Positions 18,623 through 64,000 of a DNA stretch of 64,000 nucleotides are shown in pieces. The DNA is from Bacteroidia bacterium (GTDB lineage: Bacteria > Bacteroidota > Bacteroidia > UBA4408), in the NCBI GenBank assembly GCA_044374175.1, contig JBILPB010000001.1:13889-77888 (forward strand), read 5' to 3'. The notes beneath the pieces were generated by a model. It ran no database searches and was not told where the DNA came from. It worked only from the letters and a program-made list of their open reading frames with translations. Both the position numbers and the translations under genes were made by a program. Every line of letters starts with the position of its first letter. Positions within the stretch are counted from its first letter, which is position 1.

Positions 18623-19147
18623 ATGTTAAACAAACCAATTAAAATCAGAAAGATGGCCATCTTGTCAATGGCTCTTATTTTTTGGCTTTCAGGTGTAAGT
18701 TTATTTGCTCAAAACAAGCAAGCTAACTCTACCGAGCCAGAAAAAAAGCAAGTTCCAACAGCTCAACCAAAAGTTTCATTGAGCAATCAACAACCTAGTG
18801 TTGTGAAACAAGATGATGCTTCAAAAAAAAGAGCAGCATTGGAACAGAAAAGAAAGGATGAGCAAGCCCTTGAGGCAAAAAAGCAATCTTTAGCTAAAGA
18901 AAATGCAAAGGAAACAAAAACCTCAAGTCAAATGCAATCTACCTCTGCAAAAGCCCCGATTAATGCTGTGCAAAGTGCTTCTGCAAAAAATGATGTAAAA
19001 GCAAATGATGTTCAAAAAGATTGGGAAATAAAGAAAGCTAAAATAAGTGCTGATTTAAAGGCCAAAGGCGCTTCTCAAAATGATATTGATAAGCAAATTG
19101 CCACTATGGAAAAGCAAATGAACATTAATAACAAATCAAACAAATAA
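18623..19147 (+). CDS. Small secreted low-complexity (K/Q/A/E-rich) protein, co-transcribed with the giant adhesin gene
   Basis: The signal peptide is MAILSMALIFWLSGVSLFAQN. The rest is a lysine- and glutamine-rich, probably coiled-coil or disordered region. Its stop is 3 nt before the start of the 2381-aa ORF. Confidence 0.5.
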   Translation: MLNKPIKIRKMAILSMALIFWLSGVSLFAQNKQANSTEPEKKQVPTAQPKVSLSNQQPSVVKQDDASKKRAALEQKRKDEQALEAKKQSLAKENAKETKTSSQMQSTSAKAPINAVQSASAKNDVKANDVQKDWEIKKAKISADLKAKGASQNDIDKQIATMEKQMNINNKSNK

Positions 19148-39784: not shown

Positions 39785-42319
39785 CTATCTTACCAAACTT
39801 ACTGTGCCTCTGCTTTGGATATCATTTAACAAAGGTTTTCCATTTTTATCTGAGGCTTCTAATTCCCAGATATACAAACCAAGTGGAGAAGCAGTTCCTT
39901 TATAAGTTCCATCCCAGCCTAAATTGATATCTTTTGTCTGAAAAATTTTTTCTCCCCAACGATTGTAGATAATTAATTGATACTCTTTTAAATCCATTCC
40001 AAAGGCAGTAAACACATCATTTAAACCATCGCCATTTGGAGTAAAGGCGCTAGGCATATAAATAGAACTACACTCTGCAGTAACTACAAGTGAATCTGTT
40101 GCTTTGCAAGTTCCATTATCAACAGTTAGGTAATAAGTAGTAGTGTTTATTGGAAATGCATTTACATCAAAAGTATTGTTATTACTCAAGCCTAAGGCTG
40201 GCTCCCATAAAGGTGTTCCATCACCTATACCATTAAGCATAACACCATTAACACAATCGCTTGTAACATCCTCTCCAGCTTCTACCATAGGTTTTGGTAA
40301 AAAAGTGATATTTACATTATTAGAAGCTGTGCATCCTCCACTGCTAACCACCATTACACCGTAATTTCCAGAGCTGGTTACTGCTATTTGTATGCCACTT
40401 TCGCTAGTTGTCCAATCAATTTGATTGAAGTTTTGCGTAGTACTTAAATACACAATATCGCCATCGCAAGGAAAAGGGTTAGCATTGTATATACTAACAG
40501 ATATACTAGCGTTAAAAGAAACGATTACTGCATTGGATGCGGCAGAACAGCCTGAAGCATTGGTTATAACCACACTGTAATCACCAGTTTGGGCAGCCAA
40601 AAAAGTATTTAAAGTGGCTCCGGCAATACTTATACCTGCATTATACCACTGGTAAGATGCAGCACCCGAAGCTACCTGCAATAAAACAGGAACGGCATTA
40701 CAAATAAGCACTGGTCCTGCAGGTGTAATCTGAGCGGTTGGTAAGGGTAAAAGATTTATAATTGTTTGTGCGGAACTAGTATTGCAACCATTTGCATTTG
40801 TTGTAGAAACAGTATAGCTGCCTGTTTCTGTAACAACTAATGTATCTGCTGTAGCTCCTGCAATAATATTATTATTTACATACCACTGATAATTTGCTAG
40901 TCCTGCTGTTGCTTGTAAAGTAAGTGATTGGCCTTGACAAAAGCTAAGCTGCCCATTGGTAGAGGCAATGGTTGGTATAGTTGCAGTGAGTAAAGTTACT
41001 GTGGTTGGTGTTGATATGGCAGAGCAGCCATTGGCGCTGGTTACCTGTAAAGTATAATCACCTGCACTGCTTACTGTAAATTGTTGATTAGTTGCACCAG
41101 CAATTGCTACACCATTGAGCAACCATTGATAATTATTGGCAGTGTTTGTACTTTCTAATATTACATTTTCGCCAGTACAAATTGTTGTTGATGACAGGGC
41201 ATTGATAACGGCTGTTACAGCTGGTGTTACATTTACCTGGATTGTATTAGAAATTCCTGAACACGAACCACTGCCAACCGAAACAGTGTAGTTGCCACTT
41301 TGCGTTACAACTAAACTAGCATTTGTTTCTCCTGGTATTGCTGCTCCATTTAACTGCCATTGGTATGTTCCAACGGTGCTAGTGCTCAATGTTACATTAT
41401 TTCCTTCGCAAAAACTTACAGGTCCGTTGGCGGTAATATTTGGTGTTGCACCTGCTCCAACTTGAATATAGCCAATTTGTGTACTTGTAAATGTACCGCA
41501 GGTATTTGTAATTTGTAAAGTTACCGTAAAGTTGCCTGAATTATTATAACAAACTGAACTTGGATTTTGTGCATTTGAGGTACCTGTTGCAGCACCCGAA
41601 AAAGTCCAAAACCAAGCCGATGGACTTCCTAAACTATTATCTGTAAAAGCAATACAATCGCCAGGGCAAACTGATGTATTTGATGCTGTAAAAGCTGGTA
41701 CTCCCAATAGGCCGTTTGTTGCACCCATAGTAATATTTGCATTACATTTTATTTGCCAAGTTGATGCTGCATCGCAAGTTCTTCCCACAGAACAGCCATC
41801 GGTTGAAGTAGGCACCAATGCAAAACCAGCATTATTTGGCTTATTAATATTTAATGGGGCGCATGCAGCTAAAGCTATTGAGGTAATGTTTATTGGAAAT
41901 TGCCCAGCTCCCCAATAAATAGCATCTTGCTGCACCCCTGCACTATTTACCAGAATTATTTGTTCATCAGCGTTTGAAAGTATGCCTATCGTATTGCCTG
42001 CTGTGCAGCCACAAGTTCCAATATTCAAATCTACTGTTCCTCCTGAACCATTGCTACCGATAATAAAATATCCATTTGCTGCTATGCTTGATCCAGCAGG
42101 GAAGGTTACGGAATAATCACCATCTGTTAGTACAAAGCAGCTTAAATCTACTGCTGTGTTGCATGTATTGTATAATTCAATCCACTCTGCGGTATTGGGC
42201 TCGCAGGCGCCATCACAAGCATTGCTGGGGTTAACCATAACTTCATTAATTAGCACGCATTGGGCATTGCTGTTAAGGGTTAAAAAAAATAAGCTAATAT
42301 TTAGCAATAAAAATTTCAT
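39785..42319 (-). CDS. Ig-like-repeat cell-surface protein with T9SS type B (gliding-motility-associated) C-terminal domain
   Basis: 844 aa with a signal peptide. At least six Ig-like repeats are present (ITANGPVSFCEGNNVTLST..., NGC motifs). The C-terminus YMPSAFTPNGDGLNDVFTAFGMDLKEYQLIIYNRWGEKIFQTKDINLGWDGTYKG is the type B sorting-domain signature. Confidence 0.8.
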   Translation of the reverse strand: MKFLLLNISLFFLTLNSNAQCVLINEVMVNPSNACDGACEPNTAEWIELYNTCNTAVDLSCFVLTDGDYSVTFPAGSSIAANGYFIIGSNGSGGTVDLNIGTCGCTAGNTIGILSNADEQIILVNSAGVQQDAIYWGAGQFPINITSIALAACAPLNINKPNNAGFALVPTSTDGCSVGRTCDAASTWQIKCNANITMGATNGLLGVPAFTASNTSVCPGDCIAFTDNSLGSPSAWFWTFSGAATGTSNAQNPSSVCYNNSGNFTVTLQITNTCGTFTSTQIGYIQVGAGATPNITANGPVSFCEGNNVTLSTSTVGTYQWQLNGAAIPGETNASLVVTQSGNYTVSVGSGSCSGISNTIQVNVTPAVTAVINALSSTTICTGENVILESTNTANNYQWLLNGVAIAGATNQQFTVSSAGDYTLQVTSANGCSAISTPTTVTLLTATIPTIASTNGQLSFCQGQSLTLQATAGLANYQWYVNNNIIAGATADTLVVTETGSYTVSTTNANGCNTSSAQTIINLLPLPTAQITPAGPVLICNAVPVLLQVASGAASYQWYNAGISIAGATLNTFLAAQTGDYSVVITNASGCSAASNAVIVSFNASISVSIYNANPFPCDGDIVYLSTTQNFNQIDWTTSESGIQIAVTSSGNYGVMVVSSGGCTASNNVNITFLPKPMVEAGEDVTSDCVNGVMLNGIGDGTPLWEPALGLSNNNTFDVNAFPINTTTYYLTVDNGTCKATDSLVVTAECSSIYMPSAFTPNGDGLNDVFTAFGMDLKEYQLIIYNRWGEKIFQTKDINLGWDGTYKGTASPLGLYIWELEASDKNGKPLLNDIQSRGTVSLVR

Positions 42320-43915: not shown

Positions 43916-46900
43916 ATGAAAACAAGAATTCTATTATTACTGATCAGTTTGGGCTTGTACAGCTCAAGTTATGCGATATTAACTACACCAACACAGCTAG
44001 CTCCTGCAAACGGAGCAACAAATCAAGATGCAAATGCTATTTTGGATTGGAGCGCAGTTACAGGATCAACGGGTTACAATTATCAATATGATACTTCTCC
44101 AGCATTTAATAGCCCCAACTTCTTTAACGGAACTTTGGGAGCAACCTCGCAAGTAACTTTAGCAAATTTACAATTTAACACCACCTATTATTGGAGAGTA
44201 AGGGCCATAAAAACTACGGTACCTATAGATTCTAGTTTGTGGACTGCAGCTTTTACTTTTACAACCATTAATAATATTACTAACCTTTCACCTGCTAATG
44301 GCGCTACCAATCAAGATGCCAATACCATTTTAGACTGGACCGCATTTTCAGGCATTAGCGGCTATTTGTATCAATACGACACCTCGCCCACCTTTAATAG
44401 TGCTAATTTATTTAATGGAAGCACAGGAGCCTCCTCACAAGTAACCTTAGCTAACTTGCAGTTTAATACCACTTACTATTGGCGCGTGCGTGCTTTTCAT
44501 GCTACTGATACCAGCGCTTATGGGCCAACTTGGAGTTTTACAACGATCAACGCCATCACCAACCTTACACCTGCCAATGGTGCCACAAATCAAGATGCCA
44601 ATACCATTTTAGATTGGACCGCGTTTTCTGGTATTAGCGGATATTTGTATCAATATGATACTTCACCTACCTTTAATAGTGCTAATTTGTTTAATGGAAG
44701 TATTGGTGCAACCTCTCAAGTAACCTTAGCTAACTTGCAGTTTAATACCACTTACTATTGGCGTGTGCGTGCTTACCATGCTGCTGATACAAGCGCTTAT
44801 GGGCCAGTTTGGAGTTTTACCACCATAAACTCTATTATCAATCTTTCACCAGCCAATGGCGCTATCAATCAGGATGTAAATGCCATTTTGGATTGGACTG
44901 CGTTTTCTGGTATTAGCGGATATTTGTATCAATACGACACTTCACCCACATTCAATAGTGCTAATTTGTTTAATGGAAGCATTGGTGCAACCTCTCAAGT
45001 AACCTTAGCTAATTTACAGTTTAATACCACTTACTACTGGCGTGTACGCGCTTTTCATGCTACTGATACCAGTGCTTACGGACCAGTTTGGAGTTTTACA
45101 ACGATCAATGCCATTACCAACCTTACACCAGCCAATGGCGCCATAAATCAAGATGTCAATACTATTTTAGATTGGACTGCGTTTTCTGGTATTAGCGGAT
45201 ATTTGTATCAATACGATACCTCGCCCACATTCAATAGTGCTAATTTATTTAATGGAACCACAGGAGCCACCTCACAAGTAACCTTAGCTAACTTGCAGTT
45301 TAATACCACTTACTATTGGCGTGTGCGTGCTTTTCATGCTACTGATACTAGCGCTTATGGGCCAGTTTGGAGTTTTACCACCATTAATTTAATTACACAT
45401 CTTGCACCTGCCAATGGAAGTATTGGAACAACGCTAACGCCTATTTTAGATTGGACTGCATTTAGTGGAATTTTAGGTTATCAGTACCGCTATAGCGAAG
45501 ATTCAACATTTGCTACTGCAAACTTTGGTGTGTTGGGAGGAACTTCTCAAGTTACCTTGCCTACCTTACTTTATGGAACGCAGTATTTTTGGTCGGTAAG
45601 AGCCTTTCATGCTGCTGATACAAGCGATTGGTCAAATAAGTGGAACTTTACAACCAATTATCAAATGACAGCTGCACCATTGTTAATTGCACCTGCTATC
45701 GCAGCTACAAACATTCCCTTAAATGGCGTGCAGCTTGAAATTGGAAGTGTTGTTAATGCTACCGACTATCAGTATCAAATTTCGGGGAACAGCAATTTTA
45801 GCAACGCGTCATTATACTCGAGTCCAACACTGACTTTAGCATTAGGCACTTTAAATCCTTCAACAACATACTATTGGAGGGCCCGTGGACGCAATGCAGC
45901 TGGTAATTCTCCTTGGGCAAGTCCTTTTACATTTACAACTGTAGCTGGTGCACCGCCTGCGCCTACAAATGTAGGTCCATTGGATGCTGCCATCAACGTT
46001 GATTGGTTAGGAACCACCTTTAATTGGTCGCAAGTGGCTGGTGCCACAGGTTATGTGTTAGTTTTTGATGACAATGCCGGTTTTTCATCTCCTATCACCA
46101 TCAACACTACTGATAATTTTTACACTTCAGGTATTTTAGATCCCAACACCACTTATTATTGGCAGGCACAATCGGAGAATGGCAATGGTAGTTCTTCGTT
46201 TTCAACGGTATGGTCATTTACTACAGGACCAGTGCCGGCTCCAAGTTTATCTTTACCTTTAAATGGTGCAACAGGTATTGCTATAAACGGCACATTACTT
46301 ACTTGGTCGGCAGTGAATTCAGCCACATCATATTATGTTGAATATGCCACTAATGCTGCTTTTACAGGAGCAATGGGAACATCAGTAACACTGACTTCCT
46401 ATGCATTACCAGCGTTGATGAATAATCAAACCTACTATTGGCATGTATATGCAAATTATAATTCATTTTCTTCAGTTTATTCAAACACATTTTCATTTAC
46501 AACTGCATCATTAGCCTTATTGCAGCCTCCAGTTTTAGTTAGTCCTTCCAATTTAGCCACTGCAGTTCCAATTACTGGAACAAGTTTAACTTGGCTGGCT
46601 GCATCAGGTGCATTAAGTTATGATTGGGAAATAAGTACCGATGCTGCCTTTACCACAGTAGTAAATGGAAATACAAGTAATTTAACTACATTATTGGCTG
46701 CATTAAATAACAATACTACGTATTACTGGCATGTAAGAAGTGTTGATGCTTCAACGGTTTCTGCGTGGAGTGCAGCTTTTAGTTTCACTACTGCACAAGC
46801 TATTCCTGGTGTACCAAATAATATTTCACCTGCCGATGCATCAATTAATATTGATTGGTTAGGAACAACAATTACTTGGTCGCAAGAAGTTTATGCTACA

Positions 46901-47908
46901 GGTTATGTTTTGTTGTTAGATGACGATATTAATTTTGGCTCACCAAGCACTTTTACTACTTCTGATAACTTTTATGTAACAGGGATGCTTTTGCCAAACA
47001 CAACGTATTATTGGCAAGTGCAAGCTACCAATGGTAGTGGTAGCTCTTCATTCTCTACAGCCTGGTCTTTTACAACAGGAACTATTCCTGCTCCGGTATT
47101 AAATAACCCGATAAACAATGCTACTGGATTGGCTATTAGTGGCCTATTGTTAGAATGGCTACCAGTAATGGGTGCCACCGATTATTATATCGAATATGCT
47201 GACAACGCTGCATTTACAGGAGCTAGTGGAAATACAGTATCTTCAACAAGTTATTTATTACCCACATTAAATAATAATCAAACCTATTATTGGCATGTTT
47301 ATGCAGGCTATAATGCTTACTCTTCAAATTATTCTTCTAGTTTTATGTTTACTACCATTGGTAGCAATATACTAGCGGCACCGCAACTGATAAGTCCTTC
47401 TAACTTAGCTACTGCAGTTCCTATTGTGGGTACAAGTTTAACTTGGCAAAGTGTTTTGGATGCCTTAAGTTATGATTGGGAAATTAGTACAGATGCCTTA
47501 TTTACTACAGTTGTTAATGGAAACACAAGTAATACTAACACCTTGCTTATAGGATTGACCGACAATACTACCTACTATTGGCATGTAAGAAGTGTTAATG
47601 CTGATACAATTTCTGATTGGAGTAATACATTTAGCTTTACAACAGATTTACTTTCAGGGATTAATGATCTGTTGAATAATAAGCTCAATTGCTTTATTGG
47701 CAATCAACAAATTATTATTGTTTGTGATGTTGAGGCTGTTGGCAATCAATTCCAAGTTTATAATGGTGCGGGTCAGTTGGTATATGAAGATAGGATACTT
47801 GGTTTATGGAGCAATTATAATCTAGCGCATTTGAAAAGCGGGTTATACTTTGTTCGAATTCATAATCCTAAAGTTAGCCGAACCTTTAAAGTGATGCTTG
47901 CAGACTAG
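43916..47908 (+). CDS. FN3-like tandem-repeat secreted protein with T9SS CTD
   Basis: 1330 aa with a signal peptide. About 13 ~93-aa repeats share a conserved TTYYW motif and FTT termini. The C-terminus ...GLYFVRIHNPKVSRTFKVMLAD is CTD-like. Confidence 0.8.
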   Translation: MKTRILLLLISLGLYSSSYAILTTPTQLAPANGATNQDANAILDWSAVTGSTGYNYQYDTSPAFNSPNFFNGTLGATSQVTLANLQFNTTYYWRVRAIKTTVPIDSSLWTAAFTFTTINNITNLSPANGATNQDANTILDWTAFSGISGYLYQYDTSPTFNSANLFNGSTGASSQVTLANLQFNTTYYWRVRAFHATDTSAYGPTWSFTTINAITNLTPANGATNQDANTILDWTAFSGISGYLYQYDTSPTFNSANLFNGSIGATSQVTLANLQFNTTYYWRVRAYHAADTSAYGPVWSFTTINSIINLSPANGAINQDVNAILDWTAFSGISGYLYQYDTSPTFNSANLFNGSIGATSQVTLANLQFNTTYYWRVRAFHATDTSAYGPVWSFTTINAITNLTPANGAINQDVNTILDWTAFSGISGYLYQYDTSPTFNSANLFNGTTGATSQVTLANLQFNTTYYWRVRAFHATDTSAYGPVWSFTTINLITHLAPANGSIGTTLTPILDWTAFSGILGYQYRYSEDSTFATANFGVLGGTSQVTLPTLLYGTQYFWSVRAFHAADTSDWSNKWNFTTNYQMTAAPLLIAPAIAATNIPLNGVQLEIGSVVNATDYQYQISGNSNFSNASLYSSPTLTLALGTLNPSTTYYWRARGRNAAGNSPWASPFTFTTVAGAPPAPTNVGPLDAAINVDWLGTTFNWSQVAGATGYVLVFDDNAGFSSPITINTTDNFYTSGILDPNTTYYWQAQSENGNGSSSFSTVWSFTTGPVPAPSLSLPLNGATGIAINGTLLTWSAVNSATSYYVEYATNAAFTGAMGTSVTLTSYALPALMNNQTYYWHVYANYNSFSSVYSNTFSFTTASLALLQPPVLVSPSNLATAVPITGTSLTWLAASGALSYDWEISTDAAFTTVVNGNTSNLTTLLAALNNNTTYYWHVRSVDASTVSAWSAAFSFTTAQAIPGVPNNISPADASINIDWLGTTITWSQEVYATGYVLLLDDDINFGSPSTFTTSDNFYVTGMLLPNTTYYWQVQATNGSGSSSFSTAWSFTTGTIPAPVLNNPINNATGLAISGLLLEWLPVMGATDYYIEYADNAAFTGASGNTVSSTSYLLPTLNNNQTYYWHVYAGYNAYSSNYSSSFMFTTIGSNILAAPQLISPSNLATAVPIVGTSLTWQSVLDALSYDWEISTDALFTTVVNGNTSNTNTLLIGLTDNTTYYWHVRSVNADTISDWSNTFSFTTDLLSGINDLLNNKLNCFIGNQQIIIVCDVEAVGNQFQVYNGAGQLVYEDRILGLWSNYNLAHLKSGLYFVRIHNPKVSRTFKVMLAD
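43991..45664 (+). repeat. 279-bp tandem repeats inside the FN3-repeat gene; copies starting at 44270, 44549, 44828 and 45107 are near-identical at DNA level
   Basis: Copies 2-5 encode N[IA]ITNL[ST]PANGA[TI]NQD[AV]NTILDWTAFSGISGYLYQYDTSPTFNSANLFNGS.GA.SQVTLANLQFNTTYYWRVRAFHATDTSAYGP.WSFTTI with only a few substitutions. Copies 1 and 6 are more diverged. Further on, a supra-repeat (three FN3-type units A-B-C) is itself duplicated. Confidence 0.85.
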
Positions 47909-48689
47909 TGATTGTTAGCGTTACTTTTTAAAAGATTATAATTCTATATCCCCCAATTCGGGTTTACTTTATAGTTATTTCATTAGATTAATTGTCTTAT
48001 TGGTCATTTGAACGATTTCGATTGGAGTAATAAAATACTAAAGGTCAATTTATAAGTCCAATGACCTATAAATTAATGCCATTATTTGCCTGTGAAATAC
48101 CCATTGGGTCTTTTGTATAGCCTATCATTAAGGTAAATAATTTGATCTAATGAAGTATGCTTTACTTTAACTGCCTGATGAGTTGGAAAACAAGTTATAC
48201 TGTGAGAAATATATTTTTTATCTGATTCTTTTTTGTCCAAATCATTTTTAACATCAAAAACTAAATTTTGGTTAGGCAATCTATTTCCAATTGGTTTCAT
48301 TGGTATTAGCAAAGCCCGCCTTTGCCCAAAACTGGTCTCACAAAACAAAAAGTTAAGCAACAATACTGAAAAAAATAAAATAATTTTTCATTTTAATCAG
48401 TTTTAACAACCTGTTTATCAAGCAAATATAAAAATAATTTAAAATAAATGAAATTAATTATGAAAAAAATATGTTTAATGCATCTAAAGCGTAAATCAAT
48501 GTCATAACAATATGTTAATGTACCCAACAATAAACCAAAAAAAGTTAATTGATGCACATTTGAGGAATAAATTAAGGGCTCACAATAATTAAAAACCAAA
48601 TACGTTTTGTCATTTGGGAAAAGTTTTAGTAAAATTGCCCCTCTTTTAAAAAAATCAATACAAACTAAAATCAATTAATAAATTAAAAC

Positions 48690-54744: not shown

Positions 54745-54781
54745 AGAAGCCTTATTCAGAGATGCATAAGGCTTTTTTCTA
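54745..54781 (+). terminator. Rho-independent terminator after the TonB-dependent receptor gene, overlapping the era stop
   Basis: The sequence is gaagccttattcagagatgcataaggcttttttct. The stem is aagccttat/ataaggctt, followed by a T-run. Confidence 0.65.
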
Positions 54782-55660
54782 CTCTTCATACCCAAATTGC
54801 TTCAACATATAATCATTATTCCTCCAATCTTTTTTCACTTTTACAAAAAGTTCGAGGAATACTTTTTTATCGAAAAACTTTTCAATATCAATACGGGCTT
54901 GGGTGCCAACGCGTTTTAAGCCAGAACCTTGATGGCCAATAATGATGCCCTTTTGTGATTCGCGCGACACAAATATTAATGCTCTAATTTTTAAAATGGT
55001 AGGTTCATCTTTAAAACTCTCGACATACACCTCGCAGCTGTAGGGTATTTCTTTGTCGTAGTTGATTAATATTTTTTCACGAATAATTTCGCTCACAAAA
55101 AACTTTTCTGGTCGGTCGGTTAATTGATCTTTATCGTAAAAGGCAGGAGAATCGGGCAATAGCGCAACAATTCTTTTGGTAAGGTAATCAGTATTAAATT
55201 TTTCTAAGGCAGATATTGGAATGATTTCTGCTTCGGGCAAAAGAGCAGCCCAAGCAGCACTAGTTGTTTCAAGTTCTTCCGGTTTTATTAAATCAATTTT
55301 ATTAAGTAATACTACAATTTTACTTCCCGATTTTTTCAGCTTTTCCATCAACTCATCTTCTAATTGATCTTTGCTTGTAACATCAATAATCAATAAAAGT
55401 ACATCGGCATCTGATAAAGCAGTATATACAAACTTCATCATTGATTCGTGCATTTTATAATGTGGGGTGAGTATGCCAGGCGTATCAGAATAAACAATTT
55501 GATGTTCATCAGAACTTACAATACCTAATATACGATGGCGAGTGGTTTGTGCTTTAGAAGTAATGATACTCAATTTTTCACCTACTAAAATGTTCATTAA
55601 AGTAGATTTTCCCGCGTTTGGTTTTCCAATAATATTTACAAATCCTGCCTTGTGTGCCAT
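54779..55660 (-). CDS. era: GTPase Era
   Basis: The G1 motif appears as GKPNAGKSTLMN, with DTPG and NKID motifs. A C-terminal KH domain is present. 293 aa. Confidence 0.9.
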   Translation of the reverse strand: MAHKAGFVNIIGKPNAGKSTLMNILVGEKLSIITSKAQTTRHRILGIVSSDEHQIVYSDTPGILTPHYKMHESMMKFVYTALSDADVLLLIIDVTSKDQLEDELMEKLKKSGSKIVVLLNKIDLIKPEELETTSAAWAALLPEAEIIPISALEKFNTDYLTKRIVALLPDSPAFYDKDQLTDRPEKFFVSEIIREKILINYDKEIPYSCEVYVESFKDEPTILKIRALIFVSRESQKGIIIGHQGSGLKRVGTQARIDIEKFFDKKVFLELFVKVKKDWRNNDYMLKQFGYEE

Positions 55661-55687
55661 GTTTAATTTTTTACAAAGTAACGATTA

Positions 55688-56040
55688 ATATGGAAATGAT
55701 GTGAAACCTCGACTGAAATGTGTAATGAGACATTAAGGGCTTTTGAAGATTTGAAGCTATGTGTTGGTTGGCGAGGACACCAACCAATTACCAATTACCA
55801 AAATTCTTAACCCATGTAAACGAATCTCTTTAAATTTGAAGCTATGTGTTGGTTGGCGAGGCTGCAAGCAATTATCAAATATGGAAATGATGTGAAACCT
55901 CGACTGATATATGTAATGAGACATTAAGGGCTTTTGAAGATTTGAAGCTATGTGTTGATTGGCGCGGACACCAACCAATTACCAATTACCAAAAACGATG
56001 TCCGAGGTTTGGCGTCCTCGCCAACCTTTTTTTTGATCTG
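55688..56040 (+). repeat. Tandemly duplicated ~115-nt non-coding element (copy A 55688-55802, copy B 55879-55993), a partial third module at 55838-55862, and a closing plus-strand terminator hairpin at 56009-56038
   Basis: Copies A and B are near-identical (tatggaaatgatgtgaaacctcgactga...gggcttttgaagatttgaagctatgtgttggttggcgaggacaccaaccaattaccaattaccaaaa). Each ends in an 8-bp hairpin (ttggttgg / loop cgaggaca / ccaaccaa). Downstream, ggtttggcgtcctcgccaacc followed by tttttttt forms a terminator-like structure. A degenerate fourth module lies at 56128-56160 (gttgtt-gaggacaag-aacaac). Confidence 0.7.
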
Positions 56041-56189
56041 TTTGCATTAATTTCGACTTATATTAAACTTGATAATTTATGTATTTTTACTGCAACAATC
56101 AATAGTTGGCAAAACACTTTTACTTAACTTGAAGATGTAGGTTGGTTGTTGAGGACAAGAACAACTTACAGAAACTTGAGGATATAGGA

Positions 56190-59100
56190 TTAAATCCTAA
56201 TCCCCATGATTAAAATATCATCCACTTGTTCATTGGCTCTTCCCATCCAGGAGCGATAAAACCCATTGAGAGATTTTCCTTGCTGCTCCATCGTTTGGCT
56301 TTGTATATCAAACAGCAATTGTCTAAAACCCTTTGTTGTAAGTTTCTTGCCTTTAGGTCCTCCAAATTGATCGGGTGCACCATCTGTAAACAAGTAAATT
56401 GTATCTCCCTTAAAAAGTTGTATTTCTGTTTCTTTATACACTTGGTCGGCACTAGTATGGCCTGCAATACCGGCTTTAGTAGGTTTAATAATTTCAACGC
56501 TATCCAGGGTGCAATCTTTTCTGTAAATCCATAAAGGTCGGTTAGCGCCAGCAAAGGTTAAAATGTTAGTATCTGTATCTAAAAAACATAATGATATTTC
56601 CATACCATCTTTAGACTGACTGTTGCCCTCTTCTTGTTTCAATGAATCTTTAATTTTACGATTCATAAAAGACAAAATATTTGCAGGCGTTAAATCGTCA
56701 ATTTCTGCAATAGATTGGTTTAATTTTTCGCTTCCAATCATACTCATAAATGCACCAGGTACCCCATGTCCTGTACAATCGGCAGCTACAATAATGTGTT
56801 GACTTAAATTGTATTTAGTTTTATTATTTACACCAGCTAAACTAAACCAATAAAAATCGCCACTGACAATATTTCTTGGTTTAAAAAGGATGAAAGAGTC
56901 TGTAAATGTTTTCTTAAACGTGTTTACATCAGGTAAAATACTTTGTTGAATAATTTTAGCATAATTGATGCTATCGGTAATTTCTAAGTTAGCTTCGCTT
57001 AGTTTATCACGTTCCTCCCAAAGTTCGTGGGTTCTATCTTTTACTGTTTTTTCAAGCAAATCATTTACAGCACGCAGCCTTATGGTATTAAATTTAATGA
57101 TGCCGTAAATTAATACAATAGCCAACACAAAATATAAAAAATAGGCTATTGTTGTTCTGTACCAAGGTGGTGCAATTTCGAAGGTGAATTTTTTAGTGTT
57201 TGAATAGTTGTTGAAAATATCCTTTGCTCTTAGTTCAAGTGTATATTTACCCTCAGGCAAGTAGTTATAATTTTTATTTCTCAATAGCGTCCATTCACCA
57301 AAATGGTCTTCCAATGGTAATAACCGGCTAGAGAAAAACAAATCATTAACACCTGCATAATTTACGGCTGAGAACTCAAAAGAAATATCATTTAAATCAA
57401 AGGGAAGGAGTTTTTTTAGAACATCTGGAACAAGACCTCTTGTTAAGGAGAAACTTGAGTCGTTTTTGAGGGTAACTTTCTTAATAAAAATTGGGAAATG
57501 GTGCTTATAATGAATTTGTTTTTTTGTATTGTATTTAAGCAAACCATCATTGGTTGCAATCCATAAGTTACCATATTTATCCTCAGCAAATCCATTTTTT
57601 TGAATACCTAAAAATTTACTAAAATATAAGTTATCAAAGTTGTAATTATTAGTAGATGATTTACTGTAATGAGCAATAATGCCATTTTTTAATTTACTGT
57701 CATAAGCCAACCAAAAATTTTCCGTCTTATCAATATAAACTTTAAATACGTAGTTGTGCTGAATTTCTATATCACTTGGAAAAAAATCTGACTTGGTAAA
57801 TGATATATTTTTACTGTTGTTATTAATCTCATAAATTCCTCTTAAAGATGAAATTGAAATTTTATTTTTGTATTTAAAAATGTAATTTTCGGACTTAACG
57901 TTAATCGGTATTTGCAGCGGAATTAACTCGAAAATACTTTCTTCCTCTAAGGAAGGGTCAAATCTTACAAGCACTTTATTGTCACCACTTGTCCATAAAT
58001 ATCCAGCATCATCTTCTACAATAAACCTAAACTGCGATAAGTGTTCGAATTTTCTGATGAGCTTGTATTGTTTGTTTTCTAATTTATATAGGGTAATTAT
58101 ATTTTTTCCAACGGCAACAAGTAAATTTGGGTTTTTAGAGCACTGTAACGAATTATCAAACCTAATATCTTCTTCAATCGCTATTTTTTCATTTCCTCTG
58201 ATTGCATAAAGTCCATCCAGTGAGGCTACTATTAAATCGCTAATGCCATCTTTGCTAAATTTAGAAACTGAAGAACAATTGGTTTTAAAATTGGGGTTTG
58301 CCTTAAAAACAATTCCTTCATTTGTTTCACTTCCTTCAAATAAACCCACATCACAACTTGCATAAAGTTTATCATTAATAATATTGATATTATTAACTAA
58401 ACCCGAAAGGCCCTGAAAAGAGTTATACAGCCTAATTGGTGTTAAATAATCAATCATTGAAATTCCTTTACTTGATACCACCCATAAATTTTTATTTTTA
58501 TCTTCTAGGGCATGCCAAGTTTTGTTGTTGATTATACCTTTGTCAGTGGAGTAATGTTCAAGCAAATTCCCATTCAAATCTGAAATGAAAACGCCTTTAG
58601 ATTTAGTTGTGAAGCAGAAATTGCCATTACTCAATAAAATTCCACTGTAGAGCTCAGCCTCTTCAAAGTATTTGCTTACGGGGAATTTTATAGGGGTTAA
58701 AACGCAGGAATTAGCGTTTTTGCTTGGATCCCAAGTCATCTCATAAAATCCATTTTTGCGCGTACCAACTAATATTTTACCATCAATTTCTTGCACAAAA
58801 TCAACCATTGTTTCTTCAAATATTTCAGAGCCTTTAATAAAGTTTAATTTGTTACCTAAAAGGTAAGAAAATCCACCGCCAATTTCACGAACCAAATAGT
58901 TGTTTTTAAGTTCAAAACACTTATGAATACCAGTTCCTTTTGCAGGTTTAATGGTCGAAATGATATTGTTTTTATATGTGTAAATTTGCTCCCTAGTTGA
59001 AAATAAAACTTGATTGTCAATACATTTTATGGTCCAAACTTCTGCAAATGTATCATAGCCTTTAGGGATTAAATGGAGGAAAGATTGTTGTACTAATTTA

Positions 59101-59471
59101 CCGGACTCGTTTTGTATGATACATCCAAAATCACCATCAGCGCCATAGTATATTTTCCCTTTTTTATCTTTTGCTAAGGAGTAGATTACACTTTCAGTAG
59201 GTAAAAAATCAAAATCAATACCATCAAATACAAGTAAACCTATATTATTTCCTATATATATTAAACCCAACGAGTCCTCAAGAAGACACCAACTTTGATC
59301 GTGTGCTTTATGTTCATTTTTGGTATAGTTTACAATATGTGGCAAGCCACTTTCAAACGTATTGGTTTGGCAAAATGATTTACTTGGCAAAAAGATAAAA
59401 CACATCAACAACAGTAATGTGGCCATTACTACATGTTTGTAATTGAAGTGAATGAATTGAAATTTAAGCAC
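56190..59471 (-). CDS. Periplasmic beta-propeller sensor (Reg_prop repeats plus Y_Y_Y domain), TM helix, and cytoplasmic PP2C/SpoIIE-family serine phosphatase
   Basis: 1093 aa with a signal peptide. Reg_prop-like motifs are NLWVVSSKGISMIDY, GYLWTSGDNKVLVRFD and GNLWIATNDGLLKYN. The Y_Y_Y region reads YNYLPEGKYTLELRAKD. The TM helix is IAYFLYFVLAIVLIYGII. The PP2C-type motifs include FSLAGVNN...IVAADCTGHGVPGAFMSMIG...DGMEISLC...FTDGAPDQFGG. Confidence 0.8.
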   Translation of the reverse strand: MLKFQFIHFNYKHVVMATLLLLMCFIFLPSKSFCQTNTFESGLPHIVNYTKNEHKAHDQSWCLLEDSLGLIYIGNNIGLLVFDGIDFDFLPTESVIYSLAKDKKGKIYYGADGDFGCIIQNESGKLVQQSFLHLIPKGYDTFAEVWTIKCIDNQVLFSTREQIYTYKNNIISTIKPAKGTGIHKCFELKNNYLVREIGGGFSYLLGNKLNFIKGSEIFEETMVDFVQEIDGKILVGTRKNGFYEMTWDPSKNANSCVLTPIKFPVSKYFEEAELYSGILLSNGNFCFTTKSKGVFISDLNGNLLEHYSTDKGIINNKTWHALEDKNKNLWVVSSKGISMIDYLTPIRLYNSFQGLSGLVNNINIINDKLYASCDVGLFEGSETNEGIVFKANPNFKTNCSSVSKFSKDGISDLIVASLDGLYAIRGNEKIAIEEDIRFDNSLQCSKNPNLLVAVGKNIITLYKLENKQYKLIRKFEHLSQFRFIVEDDAGYLWTSGDNKVLVRFDPSLEEESIFELIPLQIPINVKSENYIFKYKNKISISSLRGIYEINNNSKNISFTKSDFFPSDIEIQHNYVFKVYIDKTENFWLAYDSKLKNGIIAHYSKSSTNNYNFDNLYFSKFLGIQKNGFAEDKYGNLWIATNDGLLKYNTKKQIHYKHHFPIFIKKVTLKNDSSFSLTRGLVPDVLKKLLPFDLNDISFEFSAVNYAGVNDLFFSSRLLPLEDHFGEWTLLRNKNYNYLPEGKYTLELRAKDIFNNYSNTKKFTFEIAPPWYRTTIAYFLYFVLAIVLIYGIIKFNTIRLRAVNDLLEKTVKDRTHELWEERDKLSEANLEITDSINYAKIIQQSILPDVNTFKKTFTDSFILFKPRNIVSGDFYWFSLAGVNNKTKYNLSQHIIVAADCTGHGVPGAFMSMIGSEKLNQSIAEIDDLTPANILSFMNRKIKDSLKQEEGNSQSKDGMEISLCFLDTDTNILTFAGANRPLWIYRKDCTLDSVEIIKPTKAGIAGHTSADQVYKETEIQLFKGDTIYLFTDGAPDQFGGPKGKKLTTKGFRQLLFDIQSQTMEQQGKSLNGFYRSWMGRANEQVDDILIMGIRI

Positions 59472-59541
59472 GAAAAAAATATTGAGCGAATATAGTATTT
59501 TAACTAATTTCTATTTACTTTTGTCGATAAATAGATAAAAA

Positions 59542-62500
59542 ATGTATATGAAATCAAAAACACTTCGTTTCTTTTTAGTATTTATACTAATCCCATTTGC
59601 AGTTTTTAGCCAATCAAAAATTTGGGGAATTACAAACAAAGGGGGAAGCGGAACTATAGGCACCGTTTACAGCACTGATAATAATGGAAGCAATCAATTA
59701 TTGCTCAATGAGTTTTTAGCCAATAATGCAGGGAGCAAACCTACAGGCAACTTAATTGAAGTGAATAATAAACTTTATGGTTTTACTTCCGAAGGTGGAA
59801 CTTCAAACAAAGGTGTTCTTTTTAGTTTTGACATAACTACCCAGCAATATGCCTTGCTGTTCAATTTTGATGGTACACCAAATGGTGCAACACCAAAAGG
59901 AAGTTTGATGTTAGCTAATAATGGTTTGTTGTATGGTGTTACCTCAAAAGGTGGCCTTAATGATGGAGGTGTGTTGTTTTCTTTTGATATCAATACCAGC
60001 ACATTTACTAAATTACATGACTTTACATTTGCAAGTGGTATTGAACCAGATGGTGCGCTTGTAGAGCAAACTATTGGTGAACTTTATGGTGTTACATTTA
60101 GAGGAGGTGTAAGTGATAAAGGGGTGCTTTTTAAATTTACAATTGCTGGAAACAACTATCAAAATTTATATAATTTTAATGCCTTAAATGGCGAAAATCC
60201 AAGAGGTACTTTGCTTAAAACCCCAAATGGTTATTTAATGGGATTAACCAGTAATGGTGGGGTTAACAGTAGAGGTGTAGTTTTTGGATATAGGGTAAGT
60301 TCTAGTACTTTTACAAAACATGTTGATTTTAGTGCTGTTGTAGGTGGTAATCCAGAAGGCAGTTTAGTATTTCACCCCATAACAGGAAAATGCTACGGGC
60401 TGGCAGCCAATGATGGTGTAAATAGTCAAGGCACCTTGTTTCAAGTGGATACTAATGGAACAGCATTTTTAAAAATTTATGATTTTCAACAATTGACGGG
60501 AGGACATCCAAAAGGATCTTTGACCTTGGCTGGCAGTAGCAAACTTTTAGGCAACACTTATGATGGTGGTCCAGCCAACTATGGGGTTGCCTTTACCATT
60601 AACACCAATGGTTCAAATTATAATGCAAGTGGTATTTTCGATTTCTTTGGTGTGGGTGCGAACTCAAGCTCAGGTTTCTACTACTCATTTCAAGAAGGAA
60701 AATATTTTACACTAACTACCAATGGAGGCAATACTTCCAATGGGATGTTGGTGAGTGTAGATACCACAAATTTTGTTTTATCTGCCGAATTTTCATTTAA
60801 TGATGCTGGTGTTGACGGTGGCTTTCCTATTGGTGGCATTGTAAAAGGGAGCAATGGAAAAGTATATGGCACCACAAGTAAAGGAGGAGCCAATGGAACA
60901 GGCACCGCATTCCAATTGGATGCCAATGGGAGCAACTTTTTAAAAATGGCAGAGTTCAATGGCACCGGTGGCGCTGACCCTAGAGGCAGTTTAATTGAAA
61001 CAGCTAACGGAAAATTTATTGGAATGTCGTTTGATGGCGGCTCTTTTAATTTTGGTTGTATTTATGAAATAGACCCTGCACTTCCATTCCCATCAACACC
61101 AATACAAAAATTAGCACTAAGTAGTGGCTTGGGAACCTATCCAAGAGGAGGAATTATAAAAGCCAACAATGGGAAATATTACGGTTTAACTTCTTCGGGT
61201 GGCGTTAATAATGATGGTGTCTTGTTTGAATATAACCCCATCACAAATAATTATATAAAACGCCATGAGTTTTCTTCATTAACTAGTGGGAGTGCCCCAG
61301 TTGGCAATTTAATACAAGCAGCTAATGGCAATTTGTATGGTTATACAAGCTCGGGAGGAGCCAATGGTGGCGGTGTAATTTTTAAATATAATCCTACAGA
61401 TTCATCTTACACAAAAATACATGATTTTAGCAATGCCTCAGGGATATCACCCGAAGGTACCATGTGCTATAATCCAGCCAATGGTTTATTGTATGGAATG
61501 ACAAAACTCGGTGGAACTAATGCTAGAGGTGTTTTGTTTTCTATTAACCCATTAAACAATACTTATGCTGCTCTGTTTAATTTTGGATTAACAAATGGCG
61601 ATTATCCCGTAGGAAAACTAGTGCGTTCTGATAATGGTAAATTATATGGATCTACGGAGTTTGGTGGTACCAATGATTTAGGGGTGTTTTTTGAGTTTAC
61701 GACTGGTGCAAATACCTATTTAAAATTATTTGATTTTAACTCTGTAAATGGTGCTAAAGCGCCATCAGAATTGTTGTTAATGAATTGTGCAGCACCTGCA
61801 ATAACAGTACAACCAATCAATGTAAACTCTTGCCCAAATAACAATGTAAGTTTTTCTTTAACAGCTTCTGGAACTGGATTAAGTTATCAATGGTATAAAA
61901 ATGGCCTAATCATAGCAGGGGCAACGAGTGCTACTTTGAACTTAAACAATGTTACTATATTAGATAATGGCAATTATCATTGCATCATTAACAATCAATG
62001 TGGTTATGTATTAACTCAGTTTGCAAAATTAAGTATTGTAAGTAAGCCAGCTTCCTTCATTACAAGATTTGGGCCTGCCGTGTTTTGCGATGGTAATTTT
62101 AATACTGAATTAAGCATCGTGTTTAATCCATTGTATACTTATCAGTGGAATTTAAATAGTACACCTATTGCTGGGGCTACCACAAATTTATACAACCCAA
62201 CACAAACGGGTAACTATACTTTAACAGTAAGCAGTGGTGTTGGTTGCGATAGTACTTCAGTTCCTGAAGCAATTACTGTGGTGGCAAATATTACAGGGAC
62301 ACCCGATATAAATGTAATTCCAAGCACTAACCTCATTTGTGGACCCACCAGTATTACTTTTGATGCAGATACTACCCTGGTGGGAATTAACCCATACTGT
62401 GAGTGGAAAAAGAATGGTTTTTTGGTTTCTAATGGGATTAATTTTTTAACCTATACTGGTATTGTACAAAATAATGATCAAATTACAGTAGAAATAATAC

Positions 62501-64000
62501 CCAACTTTTGCCCAAGCAATGTCATCTATTCTGATACATTAATCATGATTGATACTTGTGCAGCGCTTGTGATCAACATTGATTCTTTATCATCTAATAG
62601 TTTTTGTGCTGGACAATCGGCTTTGGTTTATTATCATGCCAGTAGTAATTTATTAACAGGCAATATCCTCACCGTGCAACTTTCTGATGCCAGCGGCAGC
62701 TTTACCAATGCAACCACCATTGGCACTTTATCGAGTGTAAATGCTATTGGAAGTATTAATGTAACTATTCCTGCCACTGCTGTTGGAACCGGGTATCGTA
62801 TGAGAGTAAATGTCTCCTTACCATTAAACACAGGAAATGATAACGGAGTTGATTTATATGTTTCGGTGCAGGATTTTAATTTAAGCTATGTAATAACACC
62901 AGGCACCCCATTAGTGGTGCAGCCTTTTAATGCAAGTTTTCAAAACACAACACCAAATGCATCGCTTTATAGTTTTGATTGGCATTTTGGAGATGGGACC
63001 TTTGTCAATGACACTTTAGATTATACGCACTGTTATGTAAACAATGGTGTTTATCAAACCGCTTTGGTAGCCACCGACTTGGTTTCTGGATGTACAAGCA
63101 CACTTTATGATCAAAACAACAGTAATCATAAAGTAATATGTAATGATCCTAATGCTAATAGCTGTACCCAGCCAGTAGTAGTTACTCCCAATGGTTTAAT
63201 CAATTCTTGTGTGGGAGGAAACATTTTGCTATCGTGCAATCAAGCGCCCAATTATACCTATCAATGGAGTAGAAATGGGGTGCTTATACCAGGCGAAAAC
63301 ACCTTTCAGTTGCAAGTTACACAAGCCGGTTTTTATACTGTTATTGTATATTTAAATGGGCAGTGTCCAGTAATATCTAATCCAGTACAAGTTAATTTTA
63401 ATAATCCAACACCAGCAGCGCCAACCATTACTTTTAGTGGAGGAGCAACTAACAACTGTGGGAACTCAAATGGAACCTTAACGGCTGCAGGTGCTTTTCC
63501 ATCGTTTATTTGGAGTACAGGTGAAACAGGACAATCAATTAATATCAATACCGCTGGTACTTATACGGTTATTGGTCAAGGTACGCAAGGTTGTGATGCT
63601 GTTTCTGCTCCTACCCAAGTTACAGGTCAAACTATTCCTATCCCAGAAATATGCACTGTAACCGCTATTGAGGATGATTTACATCATTTAGTTATTTGGT
63701 ATAAACCAGTAAGTGCTGTTATTGACTCCTTCATTATTATGAAAGACAGTTTAAACAACGGCAATTACACCCGAGCAGGTGCGCAAGCCTATGTTGAATT
63801 GAGTGAGTTTGAAGATTTAAACAGTAATCCGCAATTGGGTGCAGCCACTTACCGTGTTATTGCAAAAGATACCTGTGGTGGCCTTTCTCAGCCAAGTGCC
63901 CCTGTGCGCCCTATGTTTTTGCAAGTGCAAGCCAACATTGGTATTCAACGCTGGTTAAACTGGAACCAGTATATTAGTCAAACACAAAATATAAATACCT
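59542..64000 (+). CDS. Choice-of-anchor GloVer tandem-repeat protein with C-terminal Ig-like and PKD-like domains; partial, the 3' end lies beyond the window
   Basis: ATG at 59542 (alternative ATG at 59548). I translated it by eye and it stays open to position 64000, giving more than 1480 aa. The signal peptide is MYMKSKTLRFFLVFILIPFAVFSQ. About 13 ~47-aa repeats have the pattern G..P.G.L......LYG.T..GG....G.LF. Ig-like C-containing repeats follow (QWYKNGLIIAGATSATL..., NGNYHCIINNQCGYV). A PKD-like segment FDWHFGDGTFVNDTLDYTHCYVNNGVYQTALVATD is present. It is not in the ORF track because it is open-ended. Confidence 0.8.
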   Translation, partial: MYMKSKTLRFFLVFILIPFAVFSQSKIWGITNKGGSGTIGTVYSTDNNGSNQLLLNEFLANNAGSKPTGNLIEVNNKLYGFTSEGGTSNKGVLFSFDITTQQYALLFNFDGTPNGATPKGSLMLANNGLLYGVTSKGGLNDGGVLFSFDINTSTFTKLHDFTFASGIEPDGALVEQTIGELYGVTFRGGVSDKGVLFKFTIAGNNYQNLYNFNALNGENPRGTLLKTPNGYLMGLTSNGGVNSRGVVFGYRVSSSTFTKHVDFSAVVGGNPEGSLVFHPITGKCYGLAANDGVNSQGTLFQVDTNGTAFLKIYDFQQLTGGHPKGSLTLAGSSKLLGNTYDGGPANYGVAFTINTNGSNYNASGIFDFFGVGANSSSGFYYSFQEGKYFTLTTNGGNTSNGMLVSVDTTNFVLSAEFSFNDAGVDGGFPIGGIVKGSNGKVYGTTSKGGANGTGTAFQLDANGSNFLKMAEFNGTGGADPRGSLIETANGKFIGMSFDGGSFNFGCIYEIDPALPFPSTPIQKLALSSGLGTYPRGGIIKANNGKYYGLTSSGGVNNDGVLFEYNPITNNYIKRHEFSSLTSGSAPVGNLIQAANGNLYGYTSSGGANGGGVIFKYNPTDSSYTKIHDFSNASGISPEGTMCYNPANGLLYGMTKLGGTNARGVLFSINPLNNTYAALFNFGLTNGDYPVGKLVRSDNGKLYGSTEFGGTNDLGVFFEFTTGANTYLKLFDFNSVNGAKAPSELLLMNCAAPAITVQPINVNSCPNNNVSFSLTASGTGLSYQWYKNGLIIAGATSATLNLNNVTILDNGNYHCIINNQCGYVLTQFAKLSIVSKPASFITRFGPAVFCDGNFNTELSIVFNPLYTYQWNLNSTPIAGATTNLYNPTQTGNYTLTVSSGVGCDSTSVPEAITVVANITGTPDINVIPSTNLICGPTSITFDADTTLVGINPYCEWKKNGFLVSNGINFLTYTGIVQNNDQITVEIIPNFCPSNVIYSDTLIMIDTCAALVINIDSLSSNSFCAGQSALVYYHASSNLLTGNILTVQLSDASGSFTNATTIGTLSSVNAIGSINVTIPATAVGTGYRMRVNVSLPLNTGNDNGVDLYVSVQDFNLSYVITPGTPLVVQPFNASFQNTTPNASLYSFDWHFGDGTFVNDTLDYTHCYVNNGVYQTALVATDLVSGCTSTLYDQNNSNHKVICNDPNANSCTQPVVVTPNGLINSCVGGNILLSCNQAPNYTYQWSRNGVLIPGENTFQLQVTQAGFYTVIVYLNGQCPVISNPVQVNFNNPTPAAPTITFSGGATNNCGNSNGTLTAAGAFPSFIWSTGETGQSININTAGTYTVIGQGTQGCDAVSAPTQVTGQTIPIPEICTVTAIEDDLHHLVIWYKPVSAVIDSFIIMKDSLNNGNYTRAGAQAYVELSEFEDLNSNPQLGAATYRVIAKDTCGGLSQPSAPVRPMFLQVQANIGIQRWLNWNQYISQTQNINT

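Follow-up and report, generated by a model that had tools for sequence, protein, structure and literature searches.

A predicted SiaA-like transmembrane phosphatase with a periplasmic propeller sensor in a member of the Bacteroidia, and its divergent GloVer-repeat neighbour

Introduction

The closest characterised system to the locus described here is SiaABCD of Pseudomonas. In this system the phosphate on SiaC is removed by the phosphatase SiaA and restored by SiaB, and the cyclase SiaD is activated by SiaC in its free form (PMC8457831). SiaC is structurally STAS-like, and DUF1987 proteins, the family to which it belongs, have been proposed as general modulators of adjacent proteins (PMC8457831). 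In P. aeruginosa the metal site of SiaA comprises D457, D474, G477, D600, G601 and D653, and T68 of SiaC lies within the motif LLYLNTSSIK (PMC7647112). Here we describe a gene for a SiaA-like sensor phosphatase in a 64,000-nucleotide stretch of DNA from Bacteroidia bacterium (GCA_044374175.1, contig JBILPB010000001.1, positions 13,889 to 77,888 of the forward strand), which we call the window. We also describe the divergently transcribed gene beside it, which encodes a GloVer-repeat surface protein.

The sensor of this phosphatase resembles those of the hybrid two-component systems (HTCS) of Bacteroides. A related sensor is found in BguR, a one-component protein of marine Bacteroidota with a GerE output, which regulates laminarin use (bioRxiv 10.64898/2026.01.10.698779). 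In PPM phosphatases, modular exchange of sensors via crossing helical linkers has been described (PMC12143880).

The locus was singled out by a prediction made from the window's sequence, which regarded the phosphatase and its neighbour as a possible sensor/effector pair controlling the phosphorylation or expression of a surface adhesin. Our analysis points instead to a phosphatase that probably acts in a partner switch of the SiaA type, with the other components encoded elsewhere in the genome.

Domain architecture of the phosphatase

The gene and the predicted parts of its product are as follows.

56190-59471, minus strand: sensor phosphatase gene; the longest open reading frame (ORF) starts at GTG 59471 (1093 aa), and a start at ATG 59426 gives 1078 aa
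59367-59426, minus strand: predicted N-terminal signal peptide, aa 1-20, MATLLLLMCFIFLPSKSFCQ, with no lipobox, from the translation
57156-59366, minus strand: predicted periplasmic ligand-binding module, aa 21-757, tandem Reg_prop beta-propellers and Y_Y_Y, from Pfam and a profile compared with the PDB
57081-57155, minus strand: predicted single transmembrane helix, aa 758-782, TTIAYFLYFVLAIVLIYGIIKFNTI, from a hydropathy scan
56898-57080, minus strand: predicted cytoplasmic helical linker, aa 783-843, which aligns to the region preceding PP2C in SiaA
56193-56897, minus strand: PP2C (SpoIIE-family) phosphatase domain, aa 844-1078, from Pfam SpoIIE and the alignment to SiaA-PP2C

The 1078-aa form is identical (100%) to entry P0001 of the protein collection, and the 15 N-terminal codons between the GTG and the ATG are not conserved in orthologues. 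Residue numbers refer to the 1078-aa form unless the 1093-aa form is named.

The C-terminal part of the protein matches the Pfam SpoIIE family (PF07228) with 58.4 bits against a cut-off of 25 (E 1.2e-15, aa 893-1092 of the 1093-aa form). When the single sequence is searched against the PDB, the PP2C domain of SiaA (6k4e) is the sole match (E 6e-24). A profile of 23 relatives of the phosphatase, A1, matches 6k4e over positions 782-1057 with an E-value of 5.5e-69, while the next-best PP2C structure in the PDB reaches 4e-4. Residues 27-82 of the 6k4e chain, the linker region, fall inside this match. The NCBIfam SiaA model, the only PP2C model matched in that collection, covers the linker and PP2C domain (2.3e-51); the match begins at model position 381, equivalent to aa 801 of the 1093-aa form, and runs to the end. 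With model positions 381-657 alone aligned, the score of 175 bits misses the 700-bit threshold of the SiaA equivalog (NF038263) because the N-terminal half differs.

The metal-site residues of SiaA align to D857, D883, G886, D1015, G1016 and D1069, and D1019 and D1070 are listed as further metal-binding residues; the metal-site positions are invariant across the 23 relatives. On this evidence the protein is a predicted member of the SpoIIE family of PP2C phosphatases with a complete metal site, and it is not a SiaA equivalog. Among characterised phosphatases, its PP2C domain and preceding linker are closest in sequence to those of SiaA.

The Reg_prop repeats of the N-terminal part are detected by Pfam with an E-value of 2e-13. 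The Y_Y_Y match is weak, at 19.4 bits under a cut-off of 26.6 (E 1e-3); this doubt is settled by profile A1, which spans the complete periplasmic domain of BT4663 (4a2l, E 1e-121, profile positions 3-752). Further matches of the profile are to the sensors 3v9f (E 5e-109) and 3ott/3va6 (E 1e-77). The helix at aa 758-782 is the sole internal window above 1.9 in the hydropathy scan and has basic residues after it, on the side facing the cytoplasm. A signal peptide and one hydrophobic helix between the two halves would make the propellers periplasmic and the PP2C domain cytoplasmic.

Tandem periplasmic Reg_prop propellers with Y_Y_Y are the mark of an HTCS sensor, and the phosphatase has them. Pfam finds no HisKA, HATPase_c, receiver or AraC-type domain in the protein, and the cytoplasmic part consists of the linker and SpoIIE only. 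The phosphatase thus carries an HTCS-type sensor and yet is not an HTCS. In the homologue list the same sensor module is combined with outputs of other kinds: histidine kinase, LytS, GerE, adenylate cyclase and GGDEF.

The original prediction had placed a SpoIIE/PP2C phosphatase on a Reg_prop and Y_Y_Y sensor, and the Pfam matches and the profile match to the PDB bear this out. It had also named absent catalytic Asp residues as grounds for doubting the PP2C fold; the Asp and Gly metal residues are all present, so that claim stands.

Profile A1 also matches PorZ of Porphyromonas gingivalis (PDB 5m11, E 4.6e-10). This protein is a surface component of the type IX system for secretion (T9SS) with the same double-propeller layout, for which delivery of anionic lipopolysaccharide (LPS) to the PorU sortase has been reported (PMC8545088). 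The match is a possible lead to the kind of ligand bound by such propellers.

Distribution of propeller-PP2C proteins

We scanned two collections, one of contigs from one genome per species and one of metagenome contigs. Confirmed PP2C relatives number at least 599 in the former and at least 585 in the latter. In the loci that were fetched, 147 proteins combine PP2C with the HTCS-type sensor, matched over more than 400 profile positions. These fall into 97 clusters at 50% identity, which are the propeller-PP2C lineages counted below. A homologue search likewise returned many proteins combining PF07494/PF07495 with PF07228, for which the JGI label is 'serine phosphatase RsbU / ligand-binding sensor domain-containing protein'.

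The named sources of these relatives are all metagenome-assembled genomes of Bacteroidota. Among the matches listed from genome contigs there is no close orthologue, and the best full-length identities, 30-42%, come from Crocinitomicaceae. Our literature search for a Reg_prop sensor with PP2C output found no paper. The architecture is therefore common in Bacteroidota yet unstudied, and the rarity of the fusion that was implied by the original prediction is contradicted by these counts.

Some Bacteroidota genomes have three to five sensor-PP2C paralogues in a tandem array (L031, 4936-16315; L050, 5753-17288; L091, 8981-20781). The array in L031 is directly followed by two SiaC genes and a gene for a double-domain SiaB-family kinase.

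Candidate partner genes

No STAS, RsbW-type, SiaB or SiaC gene is present in the 64-kb window, according to Pfam searches of all ORFs of at least 90 aa and six-frame hidden Markov model searches for SiaB and SiaC. This agrees with the original prediction, which had noted that no anti-sigma antagonist, anti-sigma kinase or STAS partner is encoded nearby. It had concluded that the target of the phosphatase was unknown, a view that is superseded by the SiaA-like PP2C domain and by relatives that adjoin genes for SiaB-family kinases and SiaC phosphoproteins.

The flanks of 31 propeller-PP2C genes in the loci of 30 distant full-length relatives contain 102 genes at positions ±1 and ±2, two of which encode SiaC-family phosphoproteins. 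SiaC (PF09345) is matched in the relatives' loci with E-values of 2e-32 to 2.5e-44, and the DUF6272 proteins in these loci are SiaB-family kinases (NCBIfam NF038262, 110-271 bits against a cut-off of 85). Genes of the SiaB family, the SiaC family or both lie within 10 kb of a propeller-PP2C gene in 13 of the 97 lineages. For seven lineages (L031, L059, L068, L095, L118, L127 and L149) the spacing is at most three genes and 2 kb. The Bacteroidota SiaC proteins retain a phospho-acceptor motif, YFNTSSSK. Both independent samples contain loci with SiaB/SiaC genes, 8 of 80 from genomes and 7 of 80 from metagenomes, and a few of these genes lie next to a PP2C gene that has no propeller sensor. These counts argue for an enrichment of SiaB/SiaC near propeller-PP2C genes and do not prove it.

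No siaD gene lies beside the propeller-PP2C genes of the 13 related lineages that have SiaB/SiaC, in the window or beside the orthologues of the phosphatase. The linkage of siaB, siaC and siaD that characterises the operon of a SiaA equivalog is likewise missing from the window and from beside the orthologues. Since no diguanylate cyclase is encoded beside the SiaB/SiaC genes examined, the output in Bacteroidota is probably different.

The occurrence of SiaB/SiaC genes near propeller-PP2C genes in 13 of 97 lineages makes a partner switch of the SiaABC type likely for these phosphatases. The protein of the window, of 1078 or 1093 aa, is then probably a transmembrane SiaA-type sensor Ser/Thr phosphatase working with components encoded elsewhere. 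A periplasmic ligand, most likely a carbohydrate, would alter the geometry of the dimer, as in the 'scissor-blade' model of HTCS sensors and the general model of PPM phosphatases. Membrane helices and crossing linker helices would relay the change in geometry, and the PP2C dimer would thereby be switched on or off. By analogy with the relatives, the phosphatase would act on a phosphothreonine of a STAS-like protein of the SiaC family (DUF1987). This protein would be re-phosphorylated by a SiaB-family kinase and in its unphosphorylated state would bind and regulate an output protein.

Several observations weigh against this. The phosphatase scores far below the SiaA equivalog cut-off (175 versus 700 bits). 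Neither the window nor the 20 kb around five orthologues contains a SiaB, SiaC or STAS gene, so the assignment of partners rests on more distant relatives (25-40% identity). No linked partner is present in 84 of the 97 lineages. The SiaC family is also very abundant, with at least 7998 matches in the homologue search, and part of the SiaB/SiaC linkage could therefore be due to chance.

The divergent GloVer-repeat gene

The neighbouring gene and the predicted promoters that it faces are listed below.

59542-64000, plus strand: 5' part of the GloVer-repeat surface protein gene, 1486 codons without a stop, truncated by the end of the window
59614-61776, plus strand: GloVer repeat region, aa 25-745, made up of about 14 units of some 52 aa (TIGR03803)
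61795-61998, plus strand: Ig-like domain, aa 752-819 (Pfam Ig_2, 2e-11; Ig_3, 4e-11)
62923-63093, plus strand: PKD domain, aa 1128-1184 (Pfam PKD_4, 1e-8)
59472-59541, no strand assigned: putative divergent promoter region, function from consensus
59516-59523, plus strand: candidate Bacteroidota-type -7 box TACTTTTG for the GloVer gene, from consensus
59487-59494, minus strand: candidate -7 box TATATTCG for the phosphatase gene, the reverse complement of 59487-59494, from consensus

The two genes are divergent and are separated by 70 bp if the phosphatase starts at GTG and by 115 bp if it starts at ATG. Both frames of the original prediction, the 1093-aa phosphatase and a GloVer gene 70 bp away, are thus present, and the spacing given there holds with the GTG start. 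The matches in Pfam and NCBIfam also agree with its description of a protein with GloVer, Ig-like and PKD parts.

The plus-strand protein starts with a signal peptide. It matches the GloVer family model TIGR03803 with 401.4 bits against a cut-off of 44 (E 3e-123) in 12 stretches. The core motif occurs 12 times with a period of 51-52 aa, and a consensus from 38 homologues gives 14 repeats. An AlphaFold2 model of aa 1-750, made from a 38-sequence alignment, is all-beta with four strands per repeat (predicted local distance difference test score, pLDDT, 81.9). The best fold matches of the model in Foldseek are tandem beta-propellers, with HTCS sensors at the top of the list, at a template modelling (TM) score of about 0.26. 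The GloVer repeats are therefore predicted to be four-stranded beta-propeller blades. We reject homology between these repeats and the Reg_prop blades of the sensor on the basis of an hhalign probability of 1.7% together with the TM score of about 0.26, and the likeness in fold is generic to propellers. PDB matches of the Ig-like domain are to Ig-like domains of phage tails.

Orthologues of the GloVer gene encode 1639-1641 aa, so the full gene would specify about 1640 aa. The window's copy stops about 155 codons short, and its own C-terminus lies beyond the window. The orthologues, which are 74-83% identical in the repeat region, end in Por_Secre_tail (PF18962), and we read the neighbour as a putative T9SS-secreted surface protein with its own promoter. 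Our literature searches on GloVer and on Y_Y_Y turned up unrelated papers only.

The two -7 boxes face outwards, 21 nt apart, inside a 58-nt core. Its identity to the corresponding core of the three GloVer-bearing orthologous loci is 98%, 87% and 83%, and that of the flanking coding DNA is 70-79%. The 57% orthologue, which has no GloVer gene, retains the phosphatase half of the region. The pattern of conservation shows a constrained core of predicted back-to-back promoters, an arrangement which would allow co-regulation and does not imply control of one gene by the other.

Conservation of the gene pair

The divergent GloVer gene is kept beside phosphatase orthologues of 80%, 69% and 65% identity (L001, L007 and L002). 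In the orthologue of 57% identity (L003) a Crp-family gene takes its place. The gene next downstream of the phosphatase is era in the window, L001, L007 and L003 and not in L002; of five orthologue groups, four have it in this position. Across the four orthologue lineages, each flank, GloVer and era, has been disrupted once, so the link to GloVer is no firmer than ordinary synteny. No GloVer gene flanks propeller-PP2C relatives in 160 distant loci. Of the conserved adjacency that the original prediction expected in related genomes, the part that holds concerns orthologues of at least 65% identity; it is lost at 57% and does not extend to the distant loci.

The window's era gene, encoding the Era GTPase, lies at 54779-55660, directly downstream of the phosphatase in the window's clade. 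In a separate clade of Bacteroidales a convergent der-era pair lies 1-2 kb downstream of propeller-PP2C genes. In total, 7 of the 97 lineages have era in the locus; besides the window, the loci concerned are L012, L060, L078, L081, L093, L126, L133, L136, L139, L155, L173 and L174. Part of the der-era clade has a conserved gene of 320-340 aa before the phosphatase, with almost no gap; its counterpart in L012 encodes 355 aa and has no Pfam match. Ancient synteny could explain the proximity of era, as could a functional link.

We also looked for secreted proteins of other families at the position directly upstream of the phosphatase. In the genome sample a T9SS sorting domain occurs at position -1 in 13 of 68 cases, compared with 25 of 627 at other positions (p 2e-5). 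The sorting domains of these neighbours are confirmed by Pfam, and the cargo families differ, including GloVer, SprB-repeat and Big_12 proteins. At the level of lineages (50% identity) the excess falls to 9 of 82 versus 33 of 662 (odds ratio 2.35, p 0.039), and the metagenome sample has no excess (1 of 48 versus 11 of 372). Because it was not replicated in metagenomes and reaches p 0.039 after clustering, we set this enrichment aside as support for the pairing. A literature search for a link between T9SS and PP2C returned nothing relevant.

Seven to eight of the window's approximately 56 genes encode T9SS cargo, with Por_Secre_tail or CHU_C tails. They include those at 3681-4943, 10406-11350, 19150-26295, 38306-39691, 39785-42319 and 43916-47908; among the products are a 2381-aa GEVED/GBD_T9SS_assoc protein and a 1330-aa protein of multiple fibronectin type III (fn3) repeats. 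Since the window is so rich in cargo genes, a cargo neighbour is not improbable by chance.

The proposed sensor/effector pair is not upheld by these results: the adjacency is limited to orthologues of at least 65% identity, and the cargo enrichment is about twofold and unreplicated. Control of adhesin phosphorylation fares no better, as direct action is topologically unlikely with a PP2C domain predicted in the cytoplasm and an exported GloVer protein. Lineage-specific synteny is the best reading of the adjacency, possibly combined with shared regulation in the promoter region, and the adjacency is no evidence that the GloVer protein is the target of the phosphatase.

Competing explanations

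In a dedicated pair, the phosphatase would control how the adhesin is expressed or phosphorylated, or it would sense matter that the adhesin captures or releases. Such a pair would account for an adjacency kept at 80%, 69% and 65% identity, once with the other flank rearranged, and for an intergenic core better conserved (83-98%) than the coding DNA. The sorting domains directly upstream in the genome sample (13 of 68 versus 25 of 627, p 2e-5), spread over diverse cargo families, point the same way, as does the related sensor BguR, which adjoins genes under its control. We nevertheless consider such a pair quite unlikely. The 57% orthologue has lost the adjacency and keeps the phosphatase half of the promoter region only, the two flanks of the phosphatase have broken equally often, as neutral synteny expects, and the 160 distant loci contain no GloVer gene. 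The cargo signal fades on clustering into lineages (p 0.039) and is absent from metagenomes, in a window where cargo genes abound. The phosphatase, moreover, has no DNA-binding part and would act in the cytoplasm, from which the adhesin is exported. A classical switch of the RsbU/SpoIIE kind, in which a STAS anti-sigma-factor antagonist is dephosphorylated and a sigma factor is freed from an RsbW-type kinase, agrees with membership of the SpoIIE Pfam family and with source annotations of the form 'serine phosphatase RsbU (regulator of sigma subunit)'. The STAS-like structure of SiaC (PMC8457831) also makes the two pathways related. This explanation is unlikely, given that the small linked partners found are SiaC and DUF6272/SiaB, that no STAS or HATPase_c_2-type family is among those shared by at least two of the 102 flanking genes, and that in the PDB the PP2C domain is far nearer to the SiaA structure than to that of SpoIIE. 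The ORFs of at least 90 aa in the window also include no STAS or RsbW-type gene.

It is very unlikely, in our view, that the phosphatase instead opposes Hanks-type Ser/Thr kinases on several cytoplasmic substrates, perhaps translation or ribosome-assembly factors, with no partner switch. The window does lack a dedicated partner, and era, next downstream in four of five orthologue groups, belongs to the locus in 7 of the 97 lineages. Yet the SpoIIE-family, SiaA-like subfamily of PP2C is the one used in partner switches, and no Pkinase is among the Pfam families returned for the flanking genes or found in the window. The era gene is on the same strand in one clade and convergent in the other, and the 65% orthologue has none beside it. 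A SiaA-type switch can also be extended to a Bacteroidota-wide relay, in which periplasmic glycan sensing by propeller-PP2C proteins would act through SiaB and SiaC on T9SS surface proteins for adhesion, gliding and biofilm. The sensor would then be coupled to a cargo gene by a back-to-back promoter in some lineages, including this one. In a variant, the sensor would monitor periplasmic cargo or anionic-LPS traffic, which connects with PorZ, a T9SS component of the same double-propeller fold. So broad a scheme seems improbable.

If the phosphatase is of the SiaA type, the glycan-perception module of Bacteroidota would also feed a Ser/Thr partner switch, in addition to histidine-kinase and DNA-binding outputs. 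SiaB/SiaC modules, whose output in Pseudomonas is a diguanylate cyclase, would be a widespread and unstudied layer of signalling in Bacteroidota, and a concrete pathway could be tested in cultivable relatives. The GloVer pairing matters only if the weak cargo-neighbour signal holds phylogenetically, and a functional claim for it is unjustified at present.

Other features of the window

The gap between the phosphatase and era genes (55661-56189) is 529 bp long in the window and 27-89 bp in the orthologues. It is full of local repeats, with two 117-nt copies at 55687-55803 and 55878-55994 that are 97% identical, and a 28-nt core occurs four times. One folded 117-nt copy contains a hairpin with a 10-bp stem (GGTTGGTGTCCTCGCCAACC); the z-score of the fold is just -1.8 and there is no Rfam match. 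No other copy of the core was found in the window, and none in the 175 loci searched. In the near-identical strain L177 the gap is 657 bp, so the number of repeat copies may vary. Rfam and tRNA scans of the whole window gave no matches.

A gene at 15204-18287 specifies 1027 aa with a strong TMEM260-like protein O-mannosyltransferase domain (E 1.7e-76). It is upstream of the gene for the 2381-aa T9SS cargo protein and on the opposite strand, and a 174-aa ORF (18623-19147) with no Pfam match lies between the two. Two adjacent minus-strand ORFs of 93 aa each (48082-48363 and 48393-48674), also without Pfam matches, are upstream of an exbB-exbD-exbD-tonB cluster on the opposite strand.

Comparison with known systems

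The phosphatase resembles SiaA of the P. aeruginosa SiaABCD system (PDB 6k4e; PMC7647112, PMC8457831) in being a predicted membrane-anchored sensor PP2C with a homologous linker and PP2C domain and all metal ligands shared. Its relatives adjoin genes for SiaB-family kinases and for SiaC proteins with the phospho-Thr motif. It differs in its sensor, a predicted periplasmic double propeller and Y_Y_Y of about 740 aa in place of the N-terminal region of SiaA, and in having no siaB, siaC or siaD beside it in the window.

The sensor itself is most similar to those of the Bacteroides HTCS proteins BT4663, BT4673 and BT3049 (4a2l, 3ott, 3v9f), which also have two seven-bladed propellers and Y_Y_Y followed by a single membrane helix. 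Unlike these proteins, the phosphatase ends in PP2C and has no HisKA, HATPase, receiver or AraC part. With PP2C in place of the kinase and AraC parts, the signal would leave the protein by Ser/Thr dephosphorylation and not by a His-Asp phosphorelay and DNA binding.

BguR has the same order of signal peptide, propeller, Y_Y_Y, transmembrane helix and linker with a non-kinase output. It shows that the module can be exchanged and that genes of this type can adjoin their targets. The GerE DNA-binding domain of BguR acts directly on the neighbouring promoter, whereas the output of the phosphatase would need intermediaries because PP2C cannot bind DNA.

RsbU, RsbP and SpoIIE of Bacillus (PMC12143880) share the arrangement, in which a regulatory domain at the N-terminus is joined by a helical linker to a PP2C of the SpoIIE family, and their control has been proposed to act through the linker and the geometry of the dimer. 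Their substrates are STAS proteins in a sigma-factor operon, their sensor domains are cytoplasmic or polytopic, and the similarity of their PP2C domains to that of the phosphatase is much weaker (PDB 5mqh, E 4e-4).

The GloVer-repeat neighbour fits the family model of the TIGR03803 T9SS proteins, for which we find at least 1290 homologues, mostly composed of a GloVer region and a type A sorting domain. No member of this family has an established function. At about 1640 aa the neighbour is longer than most of these proteins, which have about 830-1300 aa, because Ig and PKD domains have been added.

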